A DNA stretch of 32,000 nt from Dickeya dadantii NCPPB 898 (GCF_000406145.1 NZ_CM001976.1:1832061-1864060); one strand, 5' to 3'. Positions 1-25,286 are shown, counted from the first letter of the stretch. Notes: generated by a model from the letters alone, not told the origin. Program-made: numbers and translations.

Positions 1-757
1 GGATTCGGCGCGTAAGCGTAGTTATTTTCCCCGCCCAACACCCCTATCGGGTCTGGCGAGACATAACACCCACCGGCCGGGTCGTAGTACCGGAAGCGGT
101 TATAGCACAGCCCGCTTTCACTGTCACGGAGCTGCCCGGCGAAGGCCAGACCCGGGTCCGGACTTTCCGATTTTTCTGTCTGCCGCTGGCCCCACAGCGT
201 GGCTTTCGGTGCCTGCCAGCGCAGGGTGCCGTCGTGTGCGAACAGCGCCTGTGGCGCGCCGTTCTGGCTGCTGGTGACAAAATCCGTTTCCCAGTCGCCG
301 CCGGGGTGCTGGCGCTGCTGCACCACCAGCTCCCAGCCGTTGTACACCCAGTGACGGCGTTGTATCAGCTGGCCGTGGCGGTAGTGGCGGATTTCCGCTA
401 TCTGGTCGCCGTCCCACAGGTAGCGGGTCTCTTCGGCTTTCTGGTCGCAGCGTTTGCCCACCCGGCGACCGAACGGGTCGTAACGGTACAGCCAGCGTTC
501 GCCGCTCGGGGTATCCACCACCCGTAGCTGGTTGCGGCTGTCCCAGCGGTACTGCCACACCTGCGGGCGGTAGCCCGGCTGCACCACCTGTTTACGGATA
601 AGCCGTCCGGCCCTGTCGTACTGGTAGTGGGTGTCGTCGTGCTGAACCAGTCGGCCAGACTGCCACTCGGTGAGGCGGCCTGCCTCCTGCGGCAGGCCGC
701 TGCGGGTGTAGTGAAAGCGGGCGGTGGTGTCCACCGGTTTGCCCGCACCACCGCTTA
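1..757 (-). pseudogene. Rhs core C-terminal segment, out of frame with the upstream Rhs ORF; continues beyond window start
   Basis: Manual minus-strand translation from about 743 to 1, in the frame offset by one nt from ORF 592..3879, is stop-free. It reads GKPVDTTARFHYTRSGLPQEAGRL...YRWDSRNQLRVVDTPSGERWLYRYDPFGRRVGK...GQLRDSESGLCYNRFRYYDPAGGCYVSPDPIGVLGGENNYAYAPN. These are YD repeats plus the conserved Rhs core-end motif. The toxin domain would lie outside the window. Confidence 0.75.
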
Positions 758-3700: not shown

Positions 3701-3879
3701 AGCGCCCCGGCCACGGCACCGGCCAGTGCACCGAGAAAACTCTTGTGTTTGATGGTCTTGCCCGGCGACGTTGGCGGTTTACCCTGACAGGGTTGTGGCC
3801 GGTCGGCGGGCGGGTTGGGACGGTTTCCGGCATGCATGGCCCCCACCCGGGCCACCCGGCTCAGAATATCGTTGAGCAT
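592..3879 (-). CDS. T6SS Rhs-family effector: prePAAR-like N-terminus, Gly/Ala-rich TM region, PAAR-like domain, YD-repeat shell. The ORF ends in out-of-frame Arg/Pro-rich sequence after an apparent frameshift.
   Basis: 1095-aa ORF. The N-terminus has ARVGAMHAG, then a long G/A/V hydrophobic stretch, then a PAAR-like VFVNDAPAARIDDKTVCGATIKEGASTVFFG. Many YD repeats follow (YEYD, RYDxxGR, YxYDxxG). The last ~55 aa (KRWCGQTGGHHRPLSLHPQRP...) look like wrong-frame translation. An AGGGAG RBS lies upstream of the ATG, directly downstream of the Eag gene. Confidence 0.85.
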   Translation of the reverse strand: MLNDILSRVARVGAMHAGNRPNPPADRPQPCQGKPPTSPGKTIKHKSFLGALAGAVAGALVAAAVAAAAVFLVGVTGGLAVAAVGALAVFAAGDLISAVTSKVSAMVDSASPAFGPVASGSGNVFVEKQPVARATQDTVACTKHNSPQLIAQGSESVFVNDAPAARIDDKTVCGATIKEGASTVFFGSGQGTYLEIADEFSWWEKALLIAVEFLVPPSRGMLKGLGKLFIRGPKAVLRGARAGAKWIAGRLADKSSCASKAFKASSGLTRAKAAVKAFLKDPVYIASGEVIESRTDIALGQTLPLVFERTYRSASVHVGLPGRGWHDSWSEVATVTRDGLNTHVVITLAQGYDIDFTFHQDVQAVYCPHYPEFTLHRRGEGFSLWHRDQQTWRDFSVVQGEHRLLSAIHDSHDNRIELVRDPKGYLRQLRHSDGVTLLLVWRGEFLHQIQRIDGGQKTLLAGYRQDEQGRLVEADATHAYHLYYEYDAAHRLTRWHDNDQTWARYEYDAQGRCVYTTCADGFLTARFDYLPDRVVMTDGLGQRSEFGFNDLYLMSWEKSPLGHVTRYEYDEVGNLLREISPAGRVVEFGYLDDTGRVSTFTDASGHQWQYTYDEAQRLCGVTDPLGREWGWVYDAEGNPERLTGPDASEVRFTWNRYGLLTQVSDAAGEVQARLQYDHRQRLLSATDAESRTQQLRYDGQDRVVQWQRADGARFGLGYRRASWTLPEQLMRPDDKEERRQYDRHNNLLSYVDGNGALWRQSFGPFDLLTARTDAEGRTWRYEYDRESQQLIAVIAPDGSRWQWWLDADGRVIRERDMTGTETHYGYDEDGLCISVRNGEGDTRHFLYDARGLLLRETAPDDTLHYRYDAAGRLTEVTSSVSHVQLEYDLRDRVVREWHNGTLLTRQYDDAARTVTRTLTWDGDAGDTTGTLAPLTSLFHYTRTGELRQVQLPDGADLTLTQDAAGRESHRRGGSGFVQQREYDVMGWLTREQSGAQHDGHLLAAQTREYRYDGAGNLTGVRHNRDAEGYRLDATGRVQAVLKRWCGQTGGHHRPLSLHPQRPAAGGRPPHRVAVWPTGSARRHPLPVRQGRTAYP

Positions 3880-3890
3880 CGTGACTCCCT

Positions 3891-4298
3891 TCAGGACGCG
3901 GCTTTGAACGTCTCGATGACCGCCAGTAGGGCGGTTTTTTGTTCCGCTTTCAGTTCACCGGCGGCGGTAACGGTAAAGGTCAGCAGCAGCTCGCCGCGTA
4001 CCTGCATCACCACCACCTGGTGCATCGGCCCTTCCGGCGAGCGCCAGCTGTACTCCAGGCCGCGCGCGGGCTGGCCGTCCAGCGTCAGTTCCCAGGCGGC
4101 GCGCTCCTGATAGCCCTTCAGGTGGGCGGAAAACTGCGCCAGCGTCTGTTCATACACCGTCTCCGGCGACAGGCCGAATTCAATCGGCGTGCGGTTGACC
4201 ACCAGATTGGCGGTATCGCCCGGCAGCACAAACACGTGCAGCGACTCGTCGCGCCAGCCCGCCGGAATACTCAGGGTGCCTTCATTCATCTGGTACAT
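3891..4298 (-). CDS. DUF1795 / Eag-family chaperone for a prePAAR Rhs effector
   Basis: 135 aa beginning MYQMNEGTLSIPAGWRDESLHVFVLP, as remembered for DUF1795 (EagR-type) proteins. Its position between vgrG and rhs is the canonical arrangement. Confidence 0.75.
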   Translation of the reverse strand: MYQMNEGTLSIPAGWRDESLHVFVLPGDTANLVVNRTPIEFGLSPETVYEQTLAQFSAHLKGYQERAAWELTLDGQPARGLEYSWRSPEGPMHQVVVMQVRGELLLTFTVTAAGELKAEQKTALLAVIETFKAAS

Positions 4299-4311
4299 AC
4301 GTGCTGCTCCC

Positions 4312-6165
4312 TCAGTTCAAATCGATACGGGTGCCGTTCAGCACCAACCCTTTACCGGTAATGGAAATGTTGCCGTCCTTGTCGATGGCGATGAAGCCGC
4401 CGGCGGTGGCAATCAGGATGTCGCCGCTCTGGGACTGGATGGCGATATTGTTTTTCACCTGCAGCGACTCGTTGTCGTCGACGGTGGTGTGGCGGTTTTT
4501 GGTGACGGCGACGGTCTGCTCGCCCTGAATCTCGGTGACCTGATTTTCCTTCACCGACACCGTCTGGTTGTGCTGCACCACCACCGTCTGGTCGCCGCCC
4601 ACGTTCTCGGTGTGGCTGGCGTTGACCGACGTACTACGGTTGTTCAGCACCACGGTATTCATGTCCTTCTGGGCGTGGATAAACACCTCTTCCTGCCCGG
4701 CCTGGTCTTCGAAGCGCAGCTCATTGAACCCGGCCCCTTTATGGGTACTGGTGCGCAGCGAGGTGCGGGTCTTGCTGGCCGGCAGGGTATACGGAGACGG
4801 GTTGGTGGCGTGAAAGGTGCGACCGGTGACGATGGGCTGGTCCGGGTCGCCCTCCAGAAAGCTCACCACCACTTCATGGCCGATGCGCGGAATGGCGATT
4901 AACCCGTACTGGCCGCCGGCCCAGCCCTGACTGACCCGCACCCAGCAGGAGCTCTGGTCGTCGCTGGCGCCGTAGCGGTCCCACGGGAACTGCAGCTTCA
5001 CCCGTCCGAACTGGTCGCAGTAAATCTCTTCGCCCGCCGGGCCGACCACGGTGGCAATCTGCGGGCCGTCCACCATCGGCTTGTACGGCATGGCCGCCCG
5101 CCAGGTGGTGGTGGCTTTCACCACCTCGAAACTGTTGCTGATGGTGGTCGGCTCGCCACCGCTTTCCTCTTCCAGCGCCTGCGGCTGCTGCCCGCTGTGG
5201 GTCACCGCCACCACCTGCCAGGCCAGGTTGAATGCCGGGTTCGGGTGCTCGGTGAGGGTAAAGGTGCCACCCGGCCTCAGTTCGGCGGCGTTGGATTCGC
5301 CGCTGCCGGTCATCGCCCCGGCACGCAGCGCATCCAGCCGGTAACCGGTAAACGCCTTGCCGCTCGGGTCCTGCTTGAAGCGGCCGGGGTAATCAAAGTG
5401 CTGGTAGGATTCACGCTGATGGTCCAGCTCGCTGCTCATCCTGTTGTGCAGCAGCCCGTAGGCCGGGGTTTTGAAGCTGTAATCCTTCAGCGCCACCTCG
5501 GCGGTACTGACCGCTTCGGCATAACGGAAACGCCGCACATAAGCGCCTTCGCTCAGCCCTTGTGTAGCGAGATTGAAGAACAGTTCCGGGCCTTTGGTCA
5601 GTGCACCGGCGTCATCGGCGAATACCACCCGGTGCTTGCCCGCTTCGAACTCGTGAAAGTAGAACAGCCCTTCTTCCGCCGCCAGCCGGTTGATAAACGC
5701 CAGGTCGCTTTCGCGGTACTGCACGCAGTATTCGCGCACCGCGTGCTCATGGCGCAGGGCAAAGGCAAAGTCGGTAATCCCGGCTTCTTCCAGCAGGGTG
5801 CCGATAATCGCGTCCGGTTTTTGGGTCTGGAAAATACGGGCGTTGGTGCGCAAGCCCAGTCGCCACAGCGCCGGGCGCACCTCGGCCTGATAGCGGGTGC
5901 GGCGAAAGCCGGTGTCGCCCTGGGCAAAGCGGCTGACGATGCCGCTGACCCGGCGCTGCAGCTCGCCTTCGTACCACACCAGCAGCTCGCACGGCTGGTC
6001 CAGCACCGCGCCGAAATCGATGCCGGGCTGGCTGCTGGCAAGACTCAGCGACAGCGCAAACGGCTGGTTCAGCGCCTCGCTCAGTTCAAAATCCACCACC
6101 GCGAACGTCGTTTCCGGCAACGCGCCGACCTTCACGGTAAACTGCAATCCGGTACTGTTGGCCAC
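4312..6165 (-). CDS. vgrG: T6SS spike protein VgrG (TssI), short form without a C-terminal extension domain
   Basis: 617 aa. Starts with the N-terminal [26 protein letters not shown] signature. The gp27/gp5-like core includes [21 protein letters not shown] and beta-helix repeats. Confidence 0.9.
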
Positions 6166-6235
6166 CTGACTTCCTCCTTATTCCCTGTCTGCGTCCGCAC
6201 TCAGCGATGACCGCCGCCATCGCTCAGGGCAGGCT

Positions 6236-6267
6236 GAAAACGACAACACCCGGACCGGAGTCCGGGT
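6236..6267 (-). terminator. Intercistronic hairpin/attenuator between hcp and vgrG
   Basis: Minus strand ACCCGGA-CTCCGG-TCCGGGT (7-bp GC stem) followed by GTTGTCGTTTTC. Lies 10 nt after the hcp stop. Confidence 0.45.
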
Positions 6268-6277
6268 TAACAGGCGA

Positions 6278-6796
6278 TTACGCTTCGATCGGCGCGCGCC
6301 AGTCGTCGGAGCCGGAGGTCCCGGCAACGGTGTGCTCCCAGTCCACCTTGCGGTAGGCCAGCGACACTTCGATCAGCTGGGTGTAATCCTGCTTGGACGG
6401 GTCCTGGCAGTGCGGCATCTGGTTGTTGATGTCGACGATGGTGGCGTCGGTCAGGGTGGTGGTGAAGAAATGCTCCTGCTTGCCTTCGACGGAGGTGCGG
6501 TACCACTTCAGGGTCACGGTCGGCAGCATTTCGCCGGAGGCCAGCGCGTTATACAGCAGCGGCACGGCCTTGTTCAGGGCGACGGTGAATTTGAACGGTT
6601 TGTGCACGCGCTGACCGGACGGCTGGCCGGACTGCGGGTCGGTCGGCACGGTCACGACGTGGTTGAATTCCTGCACCAGCATCTCGTCTTCGTGGCCCTG
6701 CACGTAGATGTTGCCGACGGAGTCGGAGGTGAAGGCACCGGCGGTGATATTGCCCTGAGTTTTACCTTCGATGCTGATATAGCATGGAGTTGGCAT
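6278..6796 (-). CDS. hcp: T6SS tube protein Hcp (TssD)
   Basis: 172 aa, MPTPCYISIEGKTQGNITAGAFTSDSVGN...HKPFKFTVALNKAVPLLYNAL, typical Hcp1-family sequence. AAGGAG RBS upstream. Confidence 0.92.
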   Translation of the reverse strand: MPTPCYISIEGKTQGNITAGAFTSDSVGNIYVQGHEDEMLVQEFNHVVTVPTDPQSGQPSGQRVHKPFKFTVALNKAVPLLYNALASGEMLPTVTLKWYRTSVEGKQEHFFTTTLTDATIVDINNQMPHCQDPSKQDYTQLIEVSLAYRKVDWEHTVAGTSGSDDWRAPIEA

Positions 6797-6845
6797 AGTC
6801 TTGCTCCTTGTTGTTGAACGATAAGTGTAACTTCAGTGTTCCTGG

Positions 6846-6861
6846 AGCAATTCCCGTGCCA
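6846..6861 (-). promoter_or_regulatory. Sigma-54 (-24/-12) promoter for hcp
   Basis: Minus strand reads TTGGCACGGGAATTGCT, matching the TGGCAC-N5-TTGCW consensus exactly. It ends about 50 nt upstream of the hcp ATG (6796). Confidence 0.8.
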
Positions 6862-6922
6862 ATTAATATCTTATTGTTTTTAAATACAATTCACTTAAGT
6901 AAAATTTTCCCTAAGTCAAATT

Positions 6923-6942
6923 TGAGCAAAAAGTTGCGCAGA
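6923..6942. promoter_or_regulatory. Proximal copy of a 20-bp dyad repeat (candidate enhancer-binding-protein UAS)
   Basis: TGAGCAAAAAGTTGCGCAGA has internal dyad arms TGAGCAA / TTGCGCA. Sits roughly -87 to -106 from the predicted sigma-54 start. Confidence 0.45.
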
Positions 6943-6993
6943 CTTCCCGAAAAAACGGCATCCATTGCTCAAACAGGGATTTATGCTGGAAAG

Positions 6994-7013
6994 TGAGCAA
7001 GAAGTTGCGCAGA
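6994..7013. promoter_or_regulatory. Distal copy of the 20-bp dyad repeat (candidate UAS)
   Basis: TGAGCAAGAAGTTGCGCAGA is 19/20 identical to 6923-6942, 71 bp away. An extra inverted half-site TTGCTCA lies at 6965-6971. Confidence 0.45.
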
Positions 7014-7065
7014 TTTTGCATTTGTTCTGTTGGTGGTTGTTTTGTGAGCGGATGTTATCCATTTT

Positions 7066-7085
7066 TATGTGATATTTATCACATA
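7066..7085. promoter_or_regulatory. CRP-type palindrome TGTGA-N6-TCACA
   Basis: TATGTGATATTTATCACATA has perfect 9-bp arms around a 2-bp centre. The core TGTGATATTTATCACA fits the CRP consensus spacing exactly. Confidence 0.55.
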
Positions 7086-7388
7086 ATGTGCTCTGTGCGA
7101 TCGCTGGATCCTGGTGGAAGAGTGTGCGTCGGGGCGAGGCAGACTGGATGAAAAGGGCTGTGCGTTTCACTCATGACATCATCATCTGGGGAGGTAACGC
7201 CCTGAGCTGTCATTTCAGTTTGGTCAGTGATGGATACATTCTTTTTTAATATGGTAAAACAGGGCAGGGAAGTCATCGAAATGCGACTTATTGGGCTGGC
7301 GTGATACTTTTTCGTGAAATTGTCAGACTTGGTTTTTTATGCAGTGTAGCGAAAAGGATATTCTGAAATGGTTTTCTGAAAGTATTCT

Positions 7389-7416
7389 GAAATGCAAAGG
7401 GCTGCATACGCAACCC
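7389..7416 (-). terminator. Intrinsic terminator downstream of tRNA-Asn
   Basis: Minus strand GGGTTGC-GTAT-GCAGCCC (7 bp including one G-U pair) followed by TTTGCATTTC. Confidence 0.6.
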
Positions 7417-7427
7417 CTTGATAAATT

Positions 7428-7503
7428 TGGCTCCTCTGACTGGACTCGAACCAGTGACATACGGATTAACAGTCCGCCGTTCTACCGACTGAACTACAGA
7501 GGA
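7428..7503 (-). tRNA. tRNA-Asn (anticodon GTT)
   Basis: Reverse complement reads TCCTCTGTAGTTCAGTCGGTAGAACGGCGGACTGTTAATCCGTATGTCACTGGTTCGAGTCCAGTCAGAGGAGCCA. It is 76 nt with a full cloverleaf and encoded CCA, and matches the enterobacterial tRNA-Asn as remembered. Confidence 0.95.
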
Positions 7504-7612
7504 ATCGTTGGAACGGGGCGCATCTTATCCGCGGTGCCCTTACGCTGTCAACGGGCAAAACCGACATTCTGTGCTGACTGCTTGGCTTCTGTACAATCCG
7601 CAGGATTCGGCG

Positions 7613-8404
7613 TCATTCTGGTGACAAATCAACCTGCGGCGGGTTCGCTTGCCAGTGCTGCAAACGTTCCAGCGGGCTTTGACGGTAAAATCCGCAAAAG
7701 TGCTGGTATACCGCCGGGAAGCGTTCCGCCAGCAGGTCTGGTGCGCTGAAAAAATACTCGGACAGCACGGCGAAGCACTCTGCCGGATCGGTTGCGGCGT
7801 AAGGGTCCATACTGGCGGCGTCTTCGCCTACCAGCTCTATTTCTTCGCGCAGTTCCTCCATCGCGGCATGCAGCACCTGCTCCCAGCGTGCTACGTCACG
7901 CAATGGCATGGCGGGAACCCCGGACGGCCGCTCGTTGCCGCGCATATCCAGCTTGTGCGCGACTTCGTGGATAATCAGATTGAATCCGGAAAGATCAAAC
8001 GAGTCCTGAATCTCCAGCCAGTTCAGCACGAGCGGCCCCTGATCCCAGCTCTGACCCGACTGTACGCTGGGGCCGCTATGCACCAGACCGAACTCGTCCA
8101 TCCATTCGCCATCGACCATAAAGGGTTCGGGGTGAATCAGTACGTCATGAAAGCCGTCAAGCCATTCAATACCCAGTTCCAGCACCGGGAGCGCAAACAA
8201 TAGCGCGATGCGTTGCGCCATTAGCTCCGTCAGCGCCAGCCCCTGTAGCGGCACCAGACGTTTCTGGCGCAGAAACTGCCTGGACAGCATGACGATATGC
8301 CGGCGTTCAGTTTCTGCCAGCGGCGTTAACAGCGGGATCGACAGCGCCTGCTGCCAGTCCGAAAAAGCGTCGGGGGTAGGGGATTTCCATTGCCACTTCA
8401 TCAT
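7613..8404 (-). CDS. mtfA: MtfA (Mlc titration factor A, M90 peptidase family)
   Basis: Collinear similarity to E. coli MtfA as remembered ([33 protein letters not shown] with HExx[18 protein letters not shown]). Start moved to MMKWQWK (8404), which matches the E. coli N-terminus MIKWPWK. Confidence 0.9.
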
Positions 8405-8498
8405 GGTGTTGCTCGCTAAGTCATCACTTGAATTCAAAGGCGTCGGTTTGTTCTTGTTAACATGCCATAAAACAGGGCATTATAGGCACCACTTTTAC

Positions 8499-8588
8499 GG
8501 AGAGATGCCGGAGCGGCTGAACGGACCGGTCTCGAAAACCGGAGTAGGGGCAACTCTACCGGGGGTTCAAATCCCCCTCTCTCCACCA
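8499..8588 (+). tRNA. serU: tRNA-Ser (anticodon CGA), class II with long variable arm. Its 3' end is the prophage attachment junction.
   Basis: GGAGAGATGCCGGAGCGGCTGAACGGACCGGTCTCGAAAACCGGAGTAGGGGCAACTCTACCGGGGGTTCAAATCCCCCTCTCTCCACCA. Identical to E. coli serU as remembered, except that the discriminator is A instead of G. Confidence 0.93.
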
Positions 8589-8688: not shown

Positions 8689-9705
8689 CTATTCATCATT
8701 ATTGATTAGCGGCAGATCTAACGTTGGCGAAACGCTGACCTTTCTATCGTACGTTATGACCTGCGCTTCGGTCTTGTGTCCGCTGAAAAGTTGCTTATCG
8801 CGACTGCTGCCCTCGTAGTCAGAAATGCCCTTGGCTTTAATATCGTGAAAATGGCATGTTAAGGGACGCCCCAGCTTCTCACTTGCCGCTGACCTCGCTT
8901 TCCGAAACAAATCATTCAGACCAGATTTGCTGTATTTTCCACCCTTTGAGTTAGCAATAATGTATCTGCTGCCGCCAAGCTCCTTTGCTTTGTTTAAAGC
9001 CGCACGCAACCGGTCTGTATAAGCCTTGATTTGTTTTTTTCCGGTTTTCCCTTGCTGTATAAATAATCCTAAATCCATTTCCTGAGCCCATTCGAGATCA
9101 CGCACATCACCGCTTCTTGCGGCACACAGATACGCTATCTCCATTGCGCATTGTAGTGCCAGCGTCGCTTCGTTATAGATAGCCATATAAACATCGTCAT
9201 CGATATAGAGATCCCTGGGCTTGACCGAGAATTTTGATATTCCTGCACACGGATTCGTTTTCACATAACCCCGCTCATAACCCCAGCGATAAACCCGGCT
9301 CATACTGCTCTTTTCCTGATTTGCTTGCGTGCGTGATTTTTTCCCCCTGATATCAAGATAACGCCTGACGTGCTCCGGCTTGATAGAATCAGCCTTAGCG
9401 TTACCAAACGCGTGCAGCAGTTTTTTTTGATGCTGTAGGTAGTCAGACTGAGTGCGCGGCGACAAATCTTTGTAATACTCACTATTAAGAAAAAATACCC
9501 ACAGTTTTCCAAACGTCATTACGTCACGTTTAGAGCTAATAATCTTTTCGTATTTTTCCCAAACCTGCGCTATGGATAAATCACGAATTTTCCCTAACGT
9601 GATCGTCTCTTTTGTTTTTGCAGGTTTGAATATGTAGCTGTATTTGTTTTTCCTGACTCGCGGAGGTAGTTTGTTATCCTCAGGATTAAGTCTCTTTCGT
9701 CCCAT
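8689..9705 (-). CDS. int: Tyrosine integrase (lambda Int family)
   Basis: 338 aa. Catalytic-region motifs AYLCAARSGDV, HDIKAKG and GHKTEAQVITY. Adjacent to the tRNA att site. Confidence 0.9.
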   Translation of the reverse strand: MGRKRLNPEDNKLPPRVRKNKYSYIFKPAKTKETITLGKIRDLSIAQVWEKYEKIISSKRDVMTFGKLWVFFLNSEYYKDLSPRTQSDYLQHQKKLLHAFGNAKADSIKPEHVRRYLDIRGKKSRTQANQEKSSMSRVYRWGYERGYVKTNPCAGISKFSVKPRDLYIDDDVYMAIYNEATLALQCAMEIAYLCAARSGDVRDLEWAQEMDLGLFIQQGKTGKKQIKAYTDRLRAALNKAKELGGSRYIIANSKGGKYSKSGLNDLFRKARSAASEKLGRPLTCHFHDIKAKGISDYEGSSRDKQLFSGHKTEAQVITYDRKVSVSPTLDLPLINNDE

Positions 9706-12913: not shown

Positions 12914-13267
12914 TTAAGCGGTGGTAATTCCGCTGAGGGAGAGATGGTCAATGCATTGCAGGGTTTTAATTTGGTCTTCAATTTCCGACGCCTGCAGGTG
13001 AGCAGATTCGATAATGCTGGACTGCTGGCGGCGTAACTGCTCGACGTATTTGTTTTTGAGATCGTCTGCTGACAACTGAGGAGCGGGAATTGTAATTTCA
13101 CGAACTTCTATGAGCGTAAACCCGTTCCATTGTGACATGTCACAGGTGGCAACAAACGGAGCGGGATTAAAACGATTGTGATGGATGTACAGCTTGACGT
13201 TGATATCTGGCGCTTTCATAGCGATCCCTTTATACTTGAGCCTCCAGTGACGGCCCTTGGTTGTCAT
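12914..13267 (-). CDS. Hypothetical early protein (117 aa)
   Basis: Start reassigned to MTTKGRHW (13267) because it is preceded by the exact CCGAGGCAAAACCAATG cassette. The longer track ORF would run through a GC hairpin. Confidence 0.6.
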   Translation of the reverse strand: MTTKGRHWRLKYKGIAMKAPDINVKLYIHHNRFNPAPFVATCDMSQWNGFTLIEVREITIPAPQLSADDLKNKYVEQLRRQQSSIIESAHLQASEIEDQIKTLQCIDHLSLSGITTA

Positions 13268-13470: not shown

Positions 13471-13967
13471 AAGGTCTTACACGCAGCTTACTGGCAAGGA
13501 TCACGGTCCTAACGTGATTTGGTTGTGACGCCCGGAGTCGAACCGGGCGGCGGGTAGGGTTTCCCGCCGATCACCTGATCGTCAATTTGGTTGTGGTGCC
13601 GGGTGCCTCCCGGTTTTGATCCCCGCTCAAGAATCAAAGGCTGAGTGTTGTTAAACGAGGTTTTGCTTTGAACGCGCCCCGGCGCATAGCCGGATTCACC
13701 ACAACGGTAAGGGTATTGGGATTCGGTAACTACCTATAATTACTGATGTGCTGGCCGCTCAAGCGCGGGACACATAACAAACCAATACCCTTACCTGTTG
13801 TGTGCTCCGTAACGTGGAGCAGACGGTCTGTTTTTAAGCCTCACGGGGCATTCTTTACGCGGGCGGACGACTCAACCGCGTTCACTGCCGTGACAGGGGG
13901 CTTGTGTGGTGTTACGCGCCCATTGCTCAATTACTACCACCACCGCAACGAATCTAATCTGTGCCGG
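13433..13967 (-). ncRNA. Candidate large structured non-coding RNA / leader of the early-left operon
   Basis: No open frame on either strand that looks like protein; stops are dense in all three minus-strand frames. Many GC hairpins, a 20-bp long-range helix (13700-13719 with 13782-13802), tandem hairpin+CACAACCAAAT modules, and a terminator at the 3' end. Confidence 0.4.
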
Positions 13968-14084
13968 TTACGCTATCCGGCGTCGCTTTACCGACCCAAT
14001 CAGGCCAGAATTTACGACCGAACCTCTGGTGTTAGCGCAGTCTTTCCCGCTGTCAGAACTCATTACCCAAACTACTGCGGTCAT
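13968..14084 (-). CDS. Possible 38-aa leader peptide (MTAVVWVMSSDSGKDCANTRGSVVNSGLIGSVKRRRIA)
   Basis: Manual translation. The ATG at 14084 is preceded by the exact CCGAGGCAAAACCAATG cassette used by six other early genes. No recognisable family. Confidence 0.35.
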   Translation of the reverse strand: MTAVVWVMSSDSGKDCANTRGSVVNSGLIGSVKRRRIA

Positions 14085-14164
14085 TGGTTTTGCCTCGGTG
14101 CGAATCATCTACCTATTCGTGCGCCGGTAGCGGCTACTTCGTGGGCGTCCTGCCTGTTCGCTGT

Positions 14165-14264
14165 CGTTGGAATAACCTTAACTAAAGGTAAGTGAAAAGG
14201 CAAGCAAAAATACTTTCAAAAAGTTAAGTTGGCGAGCGGAAGTTATTATGCTAATGATTTTTAA
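14165..14264 (-). promoter_or_regulatory. Probable OL/PL region (early-left promoter and operators)
   Basis: AT-rich block just downstream of the cI stop. Candidate minus-strand promoters are TTGAAA-17-TTCACT and TTGCCT-17-TAAGGT. Motifs AACTAAAGGTA (14180-14190) and TTAAGTT (14224-14230) recur in the OR region (14718-14728 and 14701-14707). Confidence 0.4.
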
Positions 14265-14666
14265 TTATTTTTTGTTTGATTTTTTTCTAGCCATTAACAG
14301 CTCTTCGAAGAGTGCGTTAAATCCATCCACTTTCTGCTCAAGGTCTGCCAGATGACGCTCTTTTTCCGACTCGGGTAGAGAGTCAAACAAATCCAACAGT
14401 TTACGCTGTCTGTCATCCAGCTCTGTCGGTAATTCTTCCGGTGCCGCCGGGGTGCTGGATTCATCGCCATACAGAAGCCACGTGGGTGAACATCGGAGCG
14501 CCCTGCTCAGCGAGAAGAGGTTTTGGCCCTTAGGCTGAGAATCGCCATTTTCCCACTTGAATATCGTCACATGGGAAACCTTCACAGCATCGGCCAGGCG
14601 CTGCTGTGACATGTCCATTTCAGTTCGTCGCGCTCTAATGCGCTCATTCAGTGTTTCTGTCTTCAT
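14265..14666 (-). CDS. CI-like repressor, HTH_XRE N-terminal domain, no S24/LexA-type peptidase domain
   Basis: 133 aa. HTH SQQRLADAVKVSHVTIFKWENG. The C-terminal ~60 aa is a helical acidic region (LDDRQRKLLDLFDSLPESEKERHLADLEQKV) with no GxSM...K cleavage-domain motifs. Divergent from the cro-like gene. Confidence 0.8.
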   Translation of the reverse strand: MKTETLNERIRARRTEMDMSQQRLADAVKVSHVTIFKWENGDSQPKGQNLFSLSRALRCSPTWLLYGDESSTPAAPEELPTELDDRQRKLLDLFDSLPESEKERHLADLEQKVDGFNALFEELLMARKKSNKK

Positions 14667-14745
14667 GCGCTTAATATAAATTATGTTGACTTAGCTTTTA
14701 TTAAGTTTTAAATTCCAAACTAAAGTTACAGGTACGGAGGTGTTC
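14667..14745. promoter_or_regulatory. OR region with divergent PR/PRM promoters
   Basis: Plus-strand TTGACT (14686-14691), 17 nt spacer, TAAATT (14709-14714). Dyad ACTTA-N8-TAAGT at 14688-14705 overlaps the spacer. Shares motifs with the OL region. Confidence 0.55.
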
Positions 14746-14943
14746 GTGTTTAAAAATGACGCAATAAAATTTTTCGGCAGTAAAACAAAGCTGGCCATTG
14801 CTGCCGGTGTGTCGCAGGCGTCCGTGTCTCGCTGGGGTGACGTAATACCTGAGCGACGGGCGGCGCGGCTCGACCGCGTTACCAACGGTGCGCTGCGTTA
14901 TGACCCTGATCTCTACCAGCGTCATAACGATACCCAGGGTTAA
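14746..14943 (+). CDS. Cro/YdaS-like HTH regulator
   Basis: FGSKTKLAIAAGVSQASVSRWG helix-turn-helix. GTG 14746 lies 5 nt after GGAGG (the track start, GTG 14740, overlaps the SD). Position is opposite cI. Confidence 0.75.
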   Translation: MFKNDAIKFFGSKTKLAIAAGVSQASVSRWGDVIPERRAARLDRVTNGALRYDPDLYQRHNDTQG

Positions 14944-14993
14944 CCCAAAAATCTGATTATCAAAAATCAATGCGAATGCGTAGGAGACGCGGA

Positions 14994-15440
14994 ATGGATA
15001 TCAGGGATTTAAAAAACGAGGTTGAGGATTGGGCCGCAGAAGCGGGGCAGGAGCGAGTAGCGATAGAGATATCGCGGGCGCTGGCGGAGCTGGGAGGTCA
15101 TCCGGGCATCAAGTTGCACGATATCGAGTGCGGCGACGTCTGGCGAGCTATCAACAACAACCGGCAGCAGATTTTTAGGTGGTTGCGTAGCGACACGCGA
15201 GCAGCTGACAGAAAAATTCAGGCGCTGGCGCCAGCCATCAAGCGGGCATTGCCAGCTGAACGCCGGGCGCGGCTCGAATCGAGCGCAATGTACCTGGTGT
15301 CGATCGCTATCCGTGAGTTTTTCGAGGCCGTGATTGCAATCCTGTTAGGCGACTGTGACATGTCACAGCGTTTGGCAACAGCAAACGCAGCAATAGCAGC
15401 TGTGGCGCCAGTGCTACAACAACGGCTGACCACCGTTTAA
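14994..15440 (+). CDS. YdaT / CII-like regulatory protein
   Basis: IFRWLRSDTRAADRKIQALAPAIKRALPAERRARL aligns with remembered Rac YdaT (IYHRWLKGETKTQREKIQKLIPAILAILPRELRHRL). Start set at ATG 14994, 6 nt after AGGAG. Confidence 0.55.
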   Translation: MDIRDLKNEVEDWAAEAGQERVAIEISRALAELGGHPGIKLHDIECGDVWRAINNNRQQIFRWLRSDTRAADRKIQALAPAIKRALPAERRARLESSAMYLVSIAIREFFEAVIAILLGDCDMSQRLATANAAIAAVAPVLQQRLTTV

Positions 15441-19281: not shown

Positions 19282-20481
19282 ATGACAGAACTGACGAAAG
19301 AGGCGCTGACCGACGCCATTAGATCCGCAGCAGTCAAGGCGGCATCAACCGATGAACGCCGGGTACTGAATTACGCTGCGGGTGAAATTGAGCGGCAGGG
19401 TAATGAAATTGAACGCTTGAAATCCGATATGCGGGAACTTACTGAGGCGATGAATCGCGCCCGGCGTACAGCGAAAGAACTGGGTGAAGAAAATCACTCA
19501 TTACGCAATCCGGCATCGACAGAAAAAATCACCGCTCAGCTGGAAGGGCTGAAATACACGCGCGCCGAACCCAATGGCTGGACATGTAAAACGCTCGCTC
19601 ATGGGCGCGTTACCGACGATGTGGCCGAGTCGTGGAACGGCGCAATCGATGCGACAATTCTGACTATCGCAGATTGGGATGCGCTGCGTCATGCGCAGCA
19701 AGAGCCGATCATAACGGATAGCGAGCTTGCCAGCGGCCCACGCGGTCAGATTTTCATCAGAAAGCCAACACCATCACCAGAGGTGCCGGAAGAAACTGGT
19801 TCATCCTTGCAGTTGCGCAATCTCATCCGTCAGCGCCATGCGGCGTGGTCACAGGCTACGTTCGGTGATGTTGGTCCTGTTGGCCCGCTAAGACATCTCA
19901 GCAAAGAAGCACTGGAAGCAGCGGCGGAGCCTGAAGACCTCAGCGAGTGGGCTGATATGCAGTTCCTGCTCTGGGATGCCCAGCGCCGTGCCGGTATCTG
20001 CGATGGTGAAATCACAGCAGCGATGGAAGAAAAGCTGAAGGTGAATATGGCGCGTCAGTGGCCCGAGCCAAAAGATGGCGAGCCGCGTCTGCACATTAAG
20101 GAGGCTGGCGCTGACCATTCCGAGCACCCGATCGAATTGGTCGAAATACCAGTGGAGCGTGACGAAAGCGGCTACTGGTCGCACCCTGCGTGGAGTGCGC
20201 TTTTCGGCGAACGTGAGGGTATGCCGCGAGACGAACTGAACGCACTGCTGGCGTCAAAAAACCTCGAATGCACATATATCGAACTGGAATGCAATTACTC
20301 GACCGAAAGCGAAGGGGTGGCCTACCGCTATTTTGAGAATGGCGACACGAATATCAGCGACTGGAACCCAGCACCGCCGGAAGGTGATGGATGGTTCATC
20401 GTGTCTATTCACGAAACGGACGATGGCCCTGTTTGTTGGTGGGTTCGGCCAATTCCCCAGATTGAAGGGGATAAGGCATGA
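19282..20481 (+). CDS. DUF550 (MazG-like dATP/dGTP pyrophosphohydrolase-type) domain protein with coiled-coil N-terminus
   Basis: Central RQRHAAWSQATFGDVGPVGPLRHLSKEALEAAAEPEDLSEWADMQFLLWDAQRRAG resembles remembered DUF550 phage proteins. Cassette variant AAGGCAAAACCAAATG upstream. Confidence 0.5.
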   Translation: MTELTKEALTDAIRSAAVKAASTDERRVLNYAAGEIERQGNEIERLKSDMRELTEAMNRARRTAKELGEENHSLRNPASTEKITAQLEGLKYTRAEPNGWTCKTLAHGRVTDDVAESWNGAIDATILTIADWDALRHAQQEPIITDSELASGPRGQIFIRKPTPSPEVPEETGSSLQLRNLIRQRHAAWSQATFGDVGPVGPLRHLSKEALEAAAEPEDLSEWADMQFLLWDAQRRAGICDGEITAAMEEKLKVNMARQWPEPKDGEPRLHIKEAGADHSEHPIELVEIPVERDESGYWSHPAWSALFGEREGMPRDELNALLASKNLECTYIELECNYSTESEGVAYRYFENGDTNISDWNPAPPEGDGWFIVSIHETDDGPVCWWVRPIPQIEGDKA

Positions 20482-22649
20482 GTATTTGGCCCACCGAGGT
20501 TTTGCAGTGCGCATCATCAGTGATCCCCGCACACCCAATGAACAATGAGCGCCGCGAGGCGCTCCTATCTCACATGAATGCAATGTTTTTGCGTCGCGAA
20601 AACCCCGCCGACATTCAGCGCACGGCCCACATGCTGGCGCGCCGTCAGCAGATAGAGGGTGCTCGCCCGGATGCAGATAACGGGCTGGTCGTCGTTGGGT
20701 TTGCTGGCGGTGGCGGTAGTTGTGAGGGCATTAAGCAGGCGCTGGGATTCGAGCCGCACATAGCGATGAATCACAACCCGGTCGCAATGGCTATGCACGC
20801 GATGAATCACCCGCGTACGCTGCATTATCCTGAAGATATTTTCAGCGTTGACCCGATTGTTTCCACCGGCGGCCTGCCTGTGCTTTTGGGGTGGTTTTCC
20901 CCGGATTGCCGCCACTTCTCAAAAGCAAAGGGCGGCACGCCTGTCAAAAAAGAGATTCGGGGATTGGCCTGGGTAGTTCTGCGCTGGGCGCTGGCCGTGC
21001 GCCCGCGCGTGCTGATGATGGAGAATGTGGAGGAATTCCGGGGCTGGGGGCCACTGGTCGCTGACAGAAAGGGGCATTTATACCCAGACCCAGCGCGCGC
21101 CGGCGAGACATTTCAAGGATTCATCGGGATGCTCAGCACCGGCGTCCCTCGCGACCACCCGGCGATTGATGAGGCGTGTGAATTTCTGAAAATCCCGCGT
21201 GACGGCGATGAGGTGAAGAGACTGATCGCCGGGTTGGGGTACAACGTAGCTCACAAAGAGCTACGCGCATCTGATCACGACACGCCGACAATCAGAAAAC
21301 GCCTTTTTGTTGTCGCTCGCCGCGACGGTAAGCCGGTTCAGTGGCCGGAGCCGACGCACGGCGACCCGGTGACAGCGTCAGTGATTAATGGGTTGCTCAA
21401 ACCGTGGCGCACCGCGGCGGAATGCATAGACTGGAGCATTCCAACGAGAAGCATTTTTGGCCGAAAGAAAGACCTGGCTGACAATACATTGCGGCGCATT
21501 GTCCGCGGGCTGCAGCGATTTGTTATCGACAACCCTACCCCGTATATCGTGCGGATTGGGCAAACGGGGTTCGGCGGAAACGGCATGCAATATTCCTGCG
21601 ATCAGCCGTTAACAACGATCACAAGCAAGGCCGAGCATTGCCTGATTGAGCCGTTTGTCGTCAAAGCAAATCACACCAGCACAAAAACAAAATACGACTG
21701 TTTTAGGGGCCGATCGATGCGCCGGCCACTGCAGACAATCACGAAAACACATGGGTTTTCCGTGGGCGCGCCGGTGGTTGTCCGCCAGTTCGGTAACAGC
21801 AACGCCCAGCGCCCAGATCACCCCGTCGGTACAATCATGCCGGGTGGTGGCGGTAAAACGCAGGTGGCATCTGCTGTTCTTGTGGGTGCTGGCGGCCCGG
21901 CATACTCTGGCAAGCCGCGAGATATCAACTCTCCGGCAATCACGCTGACCACCGAATCACATACCGCGCTGGTTTCGGCAAACCTGATCAAGCACTACGG
22001 CGGCAATTATTCGGGCGCCGGAGTTGAGGTGGATGAGCCGCTACACACGATCACCACCACCGATCACCACGCCCTAATGACTTCACACCTGGTGAAACTG
22101 AGGGGGACATGCCGTGACGGGCAGGCCATCGATGAGCCAATGCCGACAGTAACGGCCGGCGGAAACCACGTTGGTGAGGTGCGCGCCTTTCTGACCAAAT
22201 ACTATGGAAACGAGAGGGACGGGGTCGCCGTTGATGATCCGATGCACACCATCCCGACACGGGACCGGTTTGGTTTGACGTCGGTTCAATGTGAGCCCGA
22301 GCCATTAACTGATGATCAGCGATACGGTGCATGGTGGTGCGCCAGGCTGTTCGATAAATTCAGCGATACCAATGACGACTCAGATTTGTTTCCAGCACCA
22401 CGTCAGCAGTATCTGTCTGTCGGAGAATGCGTCATTGTCGACATCTGCATGCGCATGCTGGAACCCCGCGAGTTGTACACCGCTAACGGGTTTCCGCCGG
22501 ACTACATCATCGACAGAGACGCAGATGGTAACGTCATATCGAAAGCGGACCAGGTAGCACACTGCGGCAATGTCGTATGCCCGCCCGTCGCCAGGGCACT
22601 GGTGTATGCAAATTTGCCGGAATACTGCATTGGGGAGATGGCAGCATGA
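20478..22649 (+). CDS. DNA (cytosine-5) methyltransferase, large phage type with a repeated variable region
   Basis: Motif I VVVGFAGGGGS; motif IV SPDCRHFS (catalytic Cys); motif VI MMENVEEF; motif VIII TIRKRLFVVARR; motif X GNVVCPPVARAL. The exact start is uncertain (alternative Met at 20538). Confidence 0.85.
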   Translation: MSIWPTEVLQCASSVIPAHPMNNERREALLSHMNAMFLRRENPADIQRTAHMLARRQQIEGARPDADNGLVVVGFAGGGGSCEGIKQALGFEPHIAMNHNPVAMAMHAMNHPRTLHYPEDIFSVDPIVSTGGLPVLLGWFSPDCRHFSKAKGGTPVKKEIRGLAWVVLRWALAVRPRVLMMENVEEFRGWGPLVADRKGHLYPDPARAGETFQGFIGMLSTGVPRDHPAIDEACEFLKIPRDGDEVKRLIAGLGYNVAHKELRASDHDTPTIRKRLFVVARRDGKPVQWPEPTHGDPVTASVINGLLKPWRTAAECIDWSIPTRSIFGRKKDLADNTLRRIVRGLQRFVIDNPTPYIVRIGQTGFGGNGMQYSCDQPLTTITSKAEHCLIEPFVVKANHTSTKTKYDCFRGRSMRRPLQTITKTHGFSVGAPVVVRQFGNSNAQRPDHPVGTIMPGGGGKTQVASAVLVGAGGPAYSGKPRDINSPAITLTTESHTALVSANLIKHYGGNYSGAGVEVDEPLHTITTTDHHALMTSHLVKLRGTCRDGQAIDEPMPTVTAGGNHVGEVRAFLTKYYGNERDGVAVDDPMHTIPTRDRFGLTSVQCEPEPLTDDQRYGAWWCARLFDKFSDTNDDSDLFPAPRQQYLSVGECVIVDICMRMLEPRELYTANGFPPDYIIDRDADGNVISKADQVAHCGNVVCPPVARALVYANLPEYCIGEMAA

Positions 22650-22777
22650 ATGATACACGTGAGCGGGCTGCGACCCGCTGCCGGTTGCCAACTGCTGCCT
22701 ACAAGGCGATCTGGCGTGCTGGGTTACACTAGGATGGCACGACATCAAGCTAACCGTGTAAATCCACAGGTAAAGAG

Positions 22778-22806
22778 AAAAAGGAGCTTAAACGCTCCTT
22801 TTTTAT
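22778..22806. terminator. Strong bidirectional intrinsic terminator after the methyltransferase gene
   Basis: AAAAAGGAGC-TTAAAC-GCTCCTTTTTT: 7-10 bp stem with a T-run on the plus strand and an equivalent U-run on the minus strand. Confidence 0.8.
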
Positions 22807-22933
22807 TGCAAAAACTCATTATCAACAGAATTAATAAAAAACATAAATGTTTTTATGCAATTTTGTATAATAACATAAGTAATTATACGGATATGATAGA
22901 AGTTGTTAAGTTTGGTTCAAGTATTCCAAGTGG

Positions 22934-22953
22934 TACTGTTTTTATATACAGTA
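22934..22953. promoter_or_regulatory. LexA (SOS) box
   Basis: TACTGTTTTTATATACAGTA matches the TACTG(TA)5CAGTA consensus at 18 of 20 positions, with both CTGT/ACAG arms and both TA flanks perfect. Overlaps a TATAAA -10-like element (22952-22957). Confidence 0.8.
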
Positions 22954-22959
22954 TAAATA

Positions 22960-23175
22960 ATGTGGGTCGTGAGTGGGGGTTTAGTGTCTGACATCGAGTC
23001 TGTAGCTGAGGGGCTCCCAGACGGCAGAGCGCTAATAACGATAGAACAGGGAAAGATAGTTAGCGTTAGAATAGTTGATGATAATGAACATGTGGCGAGC
23101 CTTGCGGCGCTACTCGACATTGCAAAACTTGCTGGATGTGTAATTGTAAACTCTGGGAACAAGCCGTATAATTAA
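22960..23175 (+). CDS. Small moron-like protein, candidate SOS-controlled antirepressor (63-71 aa)
   Basis: ORF immediately downstream of the LexA box, in a visibly AT-richer island. The more likely start is GTG 22984 (GGGGG, 4 nt, GTG), giving VSDIESVAEGLPDGRALITIEQGKIVSV... No family recognised. Confidence 0.5.
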   Translation: MWVVSGGLVSDIESVAEGLPDGRALITIEQGKIVSVRIVDDNEHVASLAALLDIAKLAGCVIVNSGNKPYN

Positions 23176-23229
23176 TGTGCCGGATTGAACACCCGGCAAC
23201 CCAAATTACTGCGCTATCGAGAGGATAAG

Positions 23230-23823
23230 ATGGCGCAGTTATCATTAGTAAAATCTCCGGGCGGGATACTGGTTCCGTCCACACCTGACACCCGCGACTA
23301 TCTGAACCGGCTCTCTGTCGGCGCAGTAATTTGTTGCGAGTTTAAAAAGGCCCGCAACCCCGCATTTCACCGAAAATATTTCTCCCTACTGGGTCTTGGT
23401 TTTGATTACTGGGAACCGGTAGGCGGGGCCATATCTCAATCCGAGCGCGATTTCGTTCGTGGATTCGTGCGTTATCTCGCCAGCTACGCTGGCGCAGAAG
23501 ATGCAATAAGCGCTGTCGCTGACGAGTATATCGAAACCACGGGCCGCCAGCGCGCCGCCAATATCTCCGCCACAAAATCATTTGACGCATTCCGCCGCTG
23601 GGTAACAGTCGAGGCCGGACATTACGACGCCTACATCATGCCAGACGGCAGCATTCAGAAAGAGGCGCGCTCAGTCTCATTTGCAAAAATGGATGACCTG
23701 GAATTTAACGATCTGTACCGGGCCACGCTAGACGTGCTCTGGAATTTCATCCTGCGCCGATCATTCCCCACCCTGCAGTCAGCAGAAAACGCGGCCGCGC
23801 AGCTGCTGGAGTATGCAGCATGA
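23230..23823 (+). CDS. DUF1367-like nin-region protein
   Basis: MAQLSLVKSPGGILVPSTPDTRDYLNRL...NPAFHRKYFSLL resembles remembered DUF1367 proteins of lambdoid nin regions. GAGGA RBS before ATG 23230. Confidence 0.55.
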   Translation: MAQLSLVKSPGGILVPSTPDTRDYLNRLSVGAVICCEFKKARNPAFHRKYFSLLGLGFDYWEPVGGAISQSERDFVRGFVRYLASYAGAEDAISAVADEYIETTGRQRAANISATKSFDAFRRWVTVEAGHYDAYIMPDGSIQKEARSVSFAKMDDLEFNDLYRATLDVLWNFILRRSFPTLQSAENAAAQLLEYAA

Positions 23824-24457: not shown

Positions 24458-24594
24458 ATCATACCAACCACATCACCGATATCTTGCGCCTCCGCTGGTG
24501 CCGCCTGCGCATATACCGCTACGCCGGCTCGGTCGTCATTGATTACCGGATTCTGCGCAATTATCAAAAAACACTGGTGAGGGCTGGCGCGTGA
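24454..24594 (+). CDS. Small 46-aa protein, positional analogue of ylcG (below the ORF-track cutoff)
   Basis: Manual translation MNHTNHITDILRLRWCRLRIYRYAGSVVIDYRILRNYQKTLVRAGA. ATGA overlap with the RusA-like stop and GTGA overlap with the Q start indicate translational coupling. Confidence 0.5.
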   Translation: MNHTNHITDILRLRWCRLRIYRYAGSVVIDYRILRNYQKTLVRAGA

Positions 24595-25286
24595 ATAATC
24601 AATTTTTGCAGTACGTTCGTGAAGAAATCATGCTGGCTACCGCTGATTTTAGTGGCAGGACAAAAGGCCAACTGGTGGCGCTGGCAGAACAGTTGCAGTA
24701 CACGAACGACAGATACCCACGTAAACGCCAGTTCGTCATCGATCCGGAAACCGAAAAGAAAGTCATGCTGAAAAACCCACCGATACCCGGCAAGCAGTCA
24801 CGCGCAAAAGGGAGCTCTATCCCGCTGGTAATCCCAGTCGAGTATGCAACAGCGTCGTGGCGCCGCGCTATCGGTGTGATTGATGAGCATCAGGGTGCAT
24901 GGTTGCGCTGGAACTATGCAGGCGATACCGATTTTCAACTCCAGGCCATTATTGTCAGATTTGGCTGGGTGGAATTCAGCGAAGGCATTAAAGGGCGACG
25001 CATTGCGAAGAAAACGCGTGAGCGGTTGCGGGCACTGATCTGGCTGGCGGCGCAGGACGTAAAATTTCAGTTGGCAGGGCGCAATGACGACGTTTATCAG
25101 CACGCCGATTTAGCGGCTCTGGCGGGCGTAAGCAAGTCAACATGGTCAGAAACGTATCAGCCGCACTGGCTATCTATGACCCGGATTTTTACTGAAATTG
25201 ATCGCGCTGCGTTGATATCGGTTTCAAAAACACGATCACAGCAAAAATCGACAAATTGCAAATCATGTATTGCAAAACCGAACTAA
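24591..25286 (+). CDS. Late-gene antiterminator Q (probable)
   Basis: 231 aa. Lies between the RusA-like gene and the lysis cassette and is followed by a promoter-like element and two terminators. Family assignment rests mainly on synteny. Confidence 0.6.
   Translation: MNNQFLQYVREEIMLATADFSGRTKGQLVALAEQLQYTNDRYPRKRQFVIDPETEKKVMLKNPPIPGKQSRAKGSSIPLVIPVEYATASWRRAIGVIDEHQGAWLRWNYAGDTDFQLQAIIVRFGWVEFSEGIKGRRIAKKTRERLRALIWLAAQDVKFQLAGRNDDVYQHADLAALAGVSKSTWSETYQPHWLSMTRIFTEIDRAALISVSKTRSQQKSTNCKSCIAKPN

Follow-up and report, generated by a model that had tools for sequence, protein, structure and literature searches.

A LexA box in front of an FsoA/GfoA-family gene points to SOS-controlled antirepression in a Dickeya dadantii prophage

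Our analysis of a 32,000-nucleotide stretch of Dickeya dadantii DNA (referred to here as the window) makes it very probable that the prophage it contains is induced by a LexA-controlled antirepressor which inactivates a non-cleavable DicA-type repressor. The original prediction for this DNA, in which a LexA-repressed antirepressor is encoded far from the immunity region and acts against a repressor that cannot be cleaved, was supported by every test we ran, with the support coming from the DicA/GtgR type of the repressor, the homology of a 63-residue protein with known antirepressors, the position of its gene in the slot held by gftA and gfoA in the Gifsy prophages, and the conservation of the LexA box in diverged relatives. 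The proposed module would extend the one described in 2011, with the lack of dinI, the Dickeya host and a promoter layout that is uncertain as its variations.

We propose that in the lysogen the host LexA protein would occupy 22934-22953 and silence the gene for the 63-aa protein, and that the weak GTG start of this gene would keep the basal level of antirepressor low. Following DNA damage, activated RecA would cause LexA to cleave itself and the 63-aa gene would be transcribed, after which its product would bind the 133-aa DicA-type repressor and take it off the operators, so that the early operons would be derepressed and the prophage induced.

The prophage is lambdoid, begins at the integrase gene (8689-9705, minus strand) and extends past position 32000, with about 23.5 kb of it inside the window. 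The preceding host DNA (~1-8500) encodes a Rhs/PAAR protein and VgrG and includes two tRNA genes (7431-7503, minus strand, and 8499-8585, plus strand); the host-side segment 592-6165 (minus strand) carries a type VI secretion VgrG of 617 aa and a PAAR-Rhs toxin of 1095 aa. The likely attachment site is a tRNA gene ~100 nt from the integrase gene. The right arm runs from the repressor, Cro and YdaT/CII-like genes through replication genes (for an HTH_36/DnaD-like initiator, an IstB-like loader and a DnaB helicase) to a gene with a dATP/dGTP pyrophosphohydrolase domain, a C5 methylase gene (20478-22649) and the antirepressor gene, after which come the DUF1367/NinB-like, DUF968, RusA and Q (24591-25286) genes. 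We note that within 19282-22649 the protein with the pyrophosphohydrolase domain (PF04447) has 399 aa, and that the C5 cytosine methylase which follows it is unusually long at 723 aa, with Pfam's best-scoring stretch to the methylase model confined to residues 75-187; neither protein has an assignment outside these parts.

The candidate LexA box, TACTGTTTTTATATACAGTA, can be read from the sequence at 22934-22953 and is strand-neutral. A near-consensus (18/20) box had been predicted at exactly this position, and we found it to differ from the LexA consensus TACTGTATATATATACAGTA by two mismatches and to be the only site within three mismatches of that consensus when the whole 32 kb window was scanned; none of 100 dinucleotide-preserving shuffles contained a site within three mismatches. 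The core CTGT-N8-ACAG, which is recognised by gammaproteobacterial LexA proteins including those of the Pectobacteriaceae, was observed twice in the window where 0.35 occurrences were expected. The boxes of E. coli umuD and sbmC rank among the tightest chromosomal LexA sites. When TACTGTTTTTATATACAGTA is reverse-complemented the result, TACTGTATATAAAAACAGTA, is letter-identical to these two boxes as listed in Table 4 of PMC3009722, and only two of the 20 letters of TACTGTTTTTATATACAGTA are changed in the box before Gifsy-2 dinI-gftA, for which a heterology index of 3.92 and SOS induction of the gene (14-fold with nalidixic acid) have been published (PMC8072944). We judged the box by its mismatch count and its identity to the umuD box because the heterology index we computed is only approximate, the matrix having been rebuilt from E. 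coli sites. With this matrix the recA box, whose published index is 4.31, scores 5.4. The second CTGT-N8-ACAG (15353-15368) was rejected as a LexA site, as it has a G+C-containing centre and an approximate heterology index of 22. On sequence grounds, we consider that a LexA box is present at the antirepressor transcription unit, where 30 nt separate TACTGTTTTTATATACAGTA from the start of the 63-codon gene (GTG 22984) and our reading of the sequence found no ORF between the two.

We gathered 84 related loci which fall into two clades, a LexA-box clade of Dickeya, Klebsiella and Raoultella types (61 assessable loci and one that is truncated) and a left-operon clade of phiP27, KPP5665-2 and Fels-1 FsoA types (22 loci); a scan of genome contigs found four loci. 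A perfect CTGT-N8-ACAG lies 5' of the gene in 61/61 of the LexA-clade loci, where it ends 15-30 nt before the start codon, and in 0/22 of the left-operon relatives when 300 nt upstream were searched. Among the 61 boxes there are 16 different 20-mers, set in 42 different contexts, with CTGT...ACAG invariant, the outer flanking bases nearly so, and the A/T-rich centre variable. Outside these boxes, the related loci (1.44 Mb) contain the core motif only 35 times, mostly as copies of one unrelated palindrome. These figures bear on the alternative explanation that the box in the window arose by chance in A/T-rich intergenic DNA and that transcription simply reaches the gene from promoters further upstream. 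The 150 nt around it are indeed very A/T-rich and conserved promoter-like elements lie off the box (TGTATAAT at 22864-22871 and ATAACA-16 nt-TATGAT at 22870-22897), but chance would have to account for the empty shuffles, for a CTGT...ACAG held invariant in 61 loci and 42 contexts while centre and flanks vary, and for the scarcity of the core in the rest of the related loci, and we regard this explanation as exceedingly improbable. As far as these loci indicate, prophages of Klebsiella, Raoultella and Dickeya form a large group in which the LexA-box antirepressor is the rule. The split into two clades also mirrors the published contrast between the LexA-controlled GfoA/GftA and the repressor-controlled FsoA, as in the left-operon clade the gene lies 3' of the phage repressor in the early-left operon, and several of the repressors there are lambda-CI-like with an S24 domain. 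Further good LexA boxes (AACTGTATGCGTATACAGTA and TACTGTAATTATATACAGTA) were seen at -340 and -733 from the gene in L013 and at -517 in L031, and some relatives may carry a second SOS-controlled gene nearby.

The antirepressor-family gene itself (22984..23175, plus strand) has 63 codons, a GTG start and a TAA stop, and its product is identical to the NCBI Dickeya dadantii protein P0001, for which NCBI gives the same start. A Shine-Dalgarno-like GGGGG (22975..22979, plus strand; GGGG in Dickeya variants) is located 4 nt 5' of the GTG. This start is found in 59/62 of the LexA-box clade members (61 loci plus the window), and two Dickeya variants (L010 and L011) have ATG in place of GTG 22984 and lack the upstream ATG at 22960. 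The ORF of 63-71 aa that had been claimed is real, with the GTG start that gives 63 aa. On the 5' side, a G+C hairpin (GGAGC-TTAAAC-GCTCC, 22783-22798) stands between an A-run and a T-run within 22777..22807, so placed as to be readable on both strands, and in the alignment of Dickeya variants its stem shows compensatory changes (GGAGC/GCTCC versus GGGGC/GCCCC); we interpret it as a two-way terminator-like element that ends the upstream methylase operon. A second hairpin, TGCCGG-ATTGAACAC-CCGGCA (23178..23198, plus strand), lies 3' of the stop codon, and because no T-run follows it on the plus strand, read-through from the 63-codon gene into the next gene is possible. The latter is the DUF1367/NinB-like gene (23227..23823, plus strand; Pfam DUF1367 E 7e-81, phrog_319), which begins 51 nt beyond the 63-codon gene and whose product aligns clearly by eye with the translation of Gifsy-2 STM1020 (irsA-type). 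In the LexA-box clade a DUF1367 gene follows immediately at every locus. The repressor gene is 8.3 kb away. A tblastn search with Gifsy-2 DinI found no DinI homologue in the window or in any locus of the clade, and we regard dinI as an accessory passenger and not as a defining part of the module. No phage record or E. coli genome matched 22650-23300 by megablast.

The gene had been described as a small orphan with no recognisable motif, and its product as apparently different from the established antirepressors, and this description proved mistaken: the protein falls in phrog_340 together with FsoA, has at least 335 database relatives (all unnamed) in a profile search, and is homologous to FsoA, GfoA and Rem. 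The 63-aa protein and FsoA match phrog_340 with E 2e-15 and E 1e-26, respectively, and each other with a BLASTP E of 7e-8, and the family alignment matches FsoA with a hhalign probability of 99.3. The core common to the two proteins is GR.(L/V)..IE.G.(I/V)...R...D(D/N)EH. The clear family member in Fels-1 is the ORF STM0898.2n (78 aa), and we identify this as FsoA because the fsoA cloning and tagging primers le154 and le162 (Lemire et al. 2011; PMC3121763 Table S1) encode an N-terminus, MNSQQMM, and a C-terminus, EAGIRFEEISNVG, which are exactly those of STM0898.2n. A family HMM built without GfoA or Rem sequences gave scores of 23.5 bits for a GfoA-like protein, 17.4 bits for Rem and a marginal 7.3 bits for GftA. 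Compared directly, the 63-aa protein matches GfoA with E 0.18 and BLASTP gave no alignment with GftA, and because direct similarity is this weak, the link to the LexA-controlled GfoA and GftA runs through FsoA and the family profile. A by-eye match to the N-terminal part of GftA was rejected, as multiple alignment places the shared core later in that protein. GfoA-like genes were recovered by blastn from phages SEN34 and mEp237, and an exact search of IMG/VR with the gfoA primer sequences found no match. A tblastn search of 50,697 phage records (E ≤ 1) returned only eight family members, none of them from 186, N15 or P22; relatives found by tblastn include those in phiP27, Klebsiella phage KPP5665-2 and Stenotrophomonas phage BUCT708. 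From this evidence we judge the 63-aa protein to be a member of the FsoA/GfoA/Rem family of small antirepressors.

Pfam gave no match to the 63-aa protein at E ≤ 0.01 (including to ANT, KilAC and Bro-N), and Pfam and NCBIfam hold no model for it or for FsoA, the GfoA-like protein, Rem or GftA; the family carries a precomputed Pfam tag, PF27490, in the sequence collection. An AlphaFold model (mean pLDDT 81) has two helices, the first of them short, with a beta-hairpin between them, and neither a sequence search of the PDB nor Foldseek against the PDB and BFVD gave anything significant, and it appears that there is no solved structure for any member of the family. We also observed weak similarity (E 0.002-0.03) between family members and the C-terminal 50 residues of phrog_4792 and phrog_2379, two profiles of 268 and 187 positions labelled 'anti-repressor', and larger antirepressors may also include this small fold as their C-terminal domain.

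A small protein made under SOS control might instead have some other job that involves no contact with a repressor, such as modulation of RecA in the manner of DinI, recombination with the NinB-like protein, or anti-defence. The constant position of the gene directly 5' of a DUF1367/NinB-like gene would suit this, as would the fact that PHROGs and NCBI assign the family no function and that no solved or predicted structure resembles the model. However, FsoA, GfoA and Rem relieve GtgR/GfoR/DicA-type repression in genetic assays, the Gifsy proteins do so biochemically as well, the resident repressor in the window is of exactly this type, and there is no sequence similarity to DinI; we therefore consider such a job very unlikely and retain antirepression as the function of the 63-aa protein.

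The repressor (14265..14666, minus strand) is a 133-aa protein of the DicA/GtgR type consisting of an HTH_3 domain and a conserved C-terminal helical module. NCBIfam recognises it over its full length as 'transcriptional repressor DicA' (NF007257, 180.7 bits compared with a cutoff of 101), and it shares 51% identity with E. coli DicA over its full length (E 4e-52) and 35% identity with Gifsy-2 GtgR (E 2e-13), including LL.LF..LPESEK in the C-terminal stretch. That this repressor lacks an S24 domain was confirmed, with Pfam finding HTH_3 only (residues 10-64) and the sequence containing no Ala-Gly or Cys-Gly bond, and because it has neither the peptidase domain nor the cleavage site, the lambda-type route of self-cleavage is closed to it. 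Searches of the window by tblastn with LexA and lambda CI found nothing. We presume from the systems to which it is related that the 133-aa repressor is the target of the 63-aa antirepressor, and that its operators lie between this gene and cro in a divergent control region (14667..14739), which is A/T-rich and contains the imperfect palindrome CTTAATA...TATTAAG. The Cro-like gene (14740-14943, plus strand; Pfam P22_Cro E 2e-20) and the YdaT/CII-like gene (14970-15440, plus strand; YdaT_toxin E 2e-26, and phrog_163 'CII-like transcriptional activator') are the first genes of the early right operon.

Two other features of the immunity region were observed. A 14-bp perfect palindrome, TGTGACATGTCACA, occurs twice at a distance of 2.2 kb (13131-13144 and 15354-15367) so as to flank this region, with one copy in the early-left region and the other inside the 3' end of the ydaT-like gene, and almost every one of ~50 related prophages (L005-L086), across repressor classes, has a copy with no more than one mismatch some 0.4-1.4 kb left of its repressor gene. 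The palindrome is not plausible as a LexA site and may be bound by a phage regulator that is conserved, such as the YdaT/CII-like protein. A 149-aa ORF (13746-14195, plus strand) with no Pfam or PHROG match lies on the strand opposite the early-left operon and close to the left side of the repressor gene, a position typical of an accessory or exclusion gene expressed in lysogeny.

The immunity region was captured for 51 loci of the LexA clade, and in 50 of them the resident repressor is short (128-154 aa) and without an S24 domain. The 50 short repressors form ten classes at 80% identity, and between the lambda-like and DicA-like HTH classes the N-terminal part is 22-34% identical (one pair 47%), while the last 50 aa of these same classes with unrelated HTH domains are 54-72% identical. 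The remaining locus, L057 (IMG/VR UViG_2767802184_000002, about 3233-3960), has kept the LexA-box gene beside a 241-aa repressor apparently of the S24 type, and may have redundant induction routes or a purely trans-acting antirepressor.

It should be noted that membership of the family is not in itself proof of a role in self-induction, because FsoA is dispensable for the induction of Fels-1 and acts on a heteroimmune repressor (PMC3121763). The antirepressor in the window might likewise be SOS-induced and act mainly in trans on the repressors of other prophages, with the resident prophage induced in some other way, and L057 would fit this explanation, as would the absence of covariation between antirepressor and repressor sequences amongst the Dickeya loci (between L009 and L012 the antirepressors are 90% identical and the repressors 60%). 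Against it, a non-cleavable resident repressor needs an inactivator, for which the 63-aa gene is the only SOS-linked candidate in the window, and the LexA-box gene accompanies a short non-cleavable repressor in all but one of the 51 loci; moreover, action in trans and self-induction can coexist. We consider an antirepressor working mainly in trans to be unlikely and self-induction through the resident repressor to be the better explanation, although a second induction route elsewhere in the prophage, of which the window spans ~23.5 kb, is possible.

The conserved end of the repressors is a module of ~45 aa, L..LF..LPESEKERH...L...V.GF..LFEELL, that is common to heteroimmune DicA/GtgR-type repressors. 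This pattern suggests that the antirepressor may recognise the C-terminal module, and if it does, this would explain why antirepressors and repressors in the Dickeya loci do not covary.

How LexA would repress transcription depends on the promoter. In the Klebsiella-type relatives TTGCGC-17 nt-TATA(T/A)A directly abuts the box, and because the box immediately follows the -10, LexA would cover the start site. The Dickeya loci have no obvious -10 abutting the box and have stronger-looking conserved promoter elements 40-70 nt upstream, which makes the mode of repression uncertain. The candidate we favour, with low confidence and without deciding among four, is a LexA-occluded promoter read from the sequence on the plus strand at 22924..22952, TTCCAA (22924-22929)-17 nt-TACAGT (22947-22952), in which TACAGT is the right half-site of the box; L010 and L011 have TTAACT-16 nt-TACAGT at the equivalent place, and this promoter is absent from the output of the automated promoter scan. 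The TATAAA which had been put forward as the -10 does exist (22952-22957) but is not kept in the Dickeya variants. The extended -10 TGTATAAT (plus strand), 63 nt 5' of the box, is perfectly conserved in all five Dickeya loci; transcription of the antirepressor gene from this element would require LexA to work in an unusual way, as a roadblock at about +56. ATAACA-16 nt-TATGAT is a further candidate.

A leftward promoter, TTAACA (22909-22904)-16 nt-TATAAT (22887-22882), with 11/12 matches, was also noticed on the minus strand of 22770-22909. It faces the hairpin at 22783-22798, and the predicted RNA of ~100 nt contains ORFs of no more than 13 codons and folds better than 200/200 shuffles (z = -3.9). 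This region is nearly invariant in four other Dickeya prophages despite differing flanks, and we suggest it as a candidate small RNA divergent from the antirepressor gene. Rfam gave only a sub-threshold GcvB match to 22770-22909 (24 bits versus 42), and across the window it found the two tRNAs at gathering score and, near the antirepressor gene, only sub-threshold matches at chance level.

A bolder proposal combines these observations, with the C-terminal module serving as a docking site through which one LexA-controlled master key would act on heteroimmune prophages, together with an unusual form of LexA regulation in Dickeya. We put this forward tentatively and think it rather doubtful as a whole. 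Were it true, the master key would co-induce prophages across Dickeya, Klebsiella, Raoultella, Salmonella and E. coli, and in Dickeya LexA would work downstream of a conserved constitutive-looking promoter and beside a divergent RNA of ~100 nt; heteroimmune prophages are reported to be cross-induced in Salmonella, and targeting of the C-terminal module would explain this too. The main finding, that the prophage is probably induced through its own antirepressor, has consequences of its own. It would extend the Gifsy/DicA antirepression switch to the prophages of a plant pathogen, and it predicts that DNA-damaging treatments induce this Dickeya prophage. It also exposes a gap in annotation, as PHROGs gives the family of the experimentally proven FsoA and GfoA the label 'unknown function' and NCBI that of 'hypothetical protein', and because of these labels SOS-inducible prophages of this type are easily misread as having no induction route.

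Amongst experimentally characterised proteins, FsoA of Fels-1 is the closest homologue of the 63-aa protein. FsoA inactivates the Gifsy-2 repressor GtgR (PMC3121763), which is homologous to the repressor in the window, but unlike the Dickeya gene, fsoA lies in the early-left operon under the control of Fels-1's own cleavable repressor and has no LexA box, and at 78 aa FsoA has a longer N-terminus. The Rem/DicA pair of the E. coli Qin cryptic prophage is more remote. Rem was found by its homology to GfoA and FsoA and relieves DicA repression 165-fold (Ragunathan and Vanderpool 2023; PMC10448788), and rem is similarly a small gene of the nin region upstream of Q, but the protein is only distantly related to the 63-aa protein by its score against the family profile and no LexA box was found in the 217 nt upstream of rem. 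The Tum protein of coliphage 186 and AntC of N15 share the logic of a LexA-repressed antirepressor directed against a non-cleavable repressor, while the proteins differ (Tum has 146 aa with a DinI-like C-terminal half; PMC3121763). Lambda shares the SOS input and the loss of repressor from the operators, and differs in that this loss comes from the RecA-stimulated self-cleavage of CI.

The nearest match is with the modules of Gifsy-1, -2 and -3, in which GfoA, GfhA and GftA act on GfoR, GfhR and GtgR, respectively, with pull-downs showing GfoA bound to GfoR (Lemire et al. 2011; PMC3121763). The Gifsy and the Dickeya prophages alike have an HTH repressor that is short and lacks a cleavage domain, an antirepressor gene ~8 kb away in the nin region and directly 5' of a DUF1367 (irsA-type) gene, a near-consensus LexA box at the promoter, and non-canonical starts (GTG in the Dickeya gene and GUG in GftA). 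The gene order in Gifsy-2 is LexA box, dinI, gftA and STM1020 (DUF1367), onward to ninG and Q, and in SEN34 and mEp237 it is LexA box, dinI, a gfoA-like gene and NinB/DUF1367, so that dinI stands between the box and the antirepressor gene in all three whereas it is absent in Dickeya; in Klebsiella phage ST16-OXA48phi5.1 a GftA relative lies directly 5' of the DUF1367 gene. The Dickeya module differs further in that its likeness to GfoA is at the profile level and to GftA is marginal, in its promoter layout around the box, and in having a plant pathogen rather than Salmonella as host. As far as the DNA alone can tell, the window combines the short DicA-type repressor, the antirepressor homologue and the nin-region slot of the Gifsy modules with an order in which dinI does not come first. 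Because the 63-codon gene belongs to the FsoA/GfoA family, we would read this arrangement as the Gifsy mechanism itself and not as a parallel invention.
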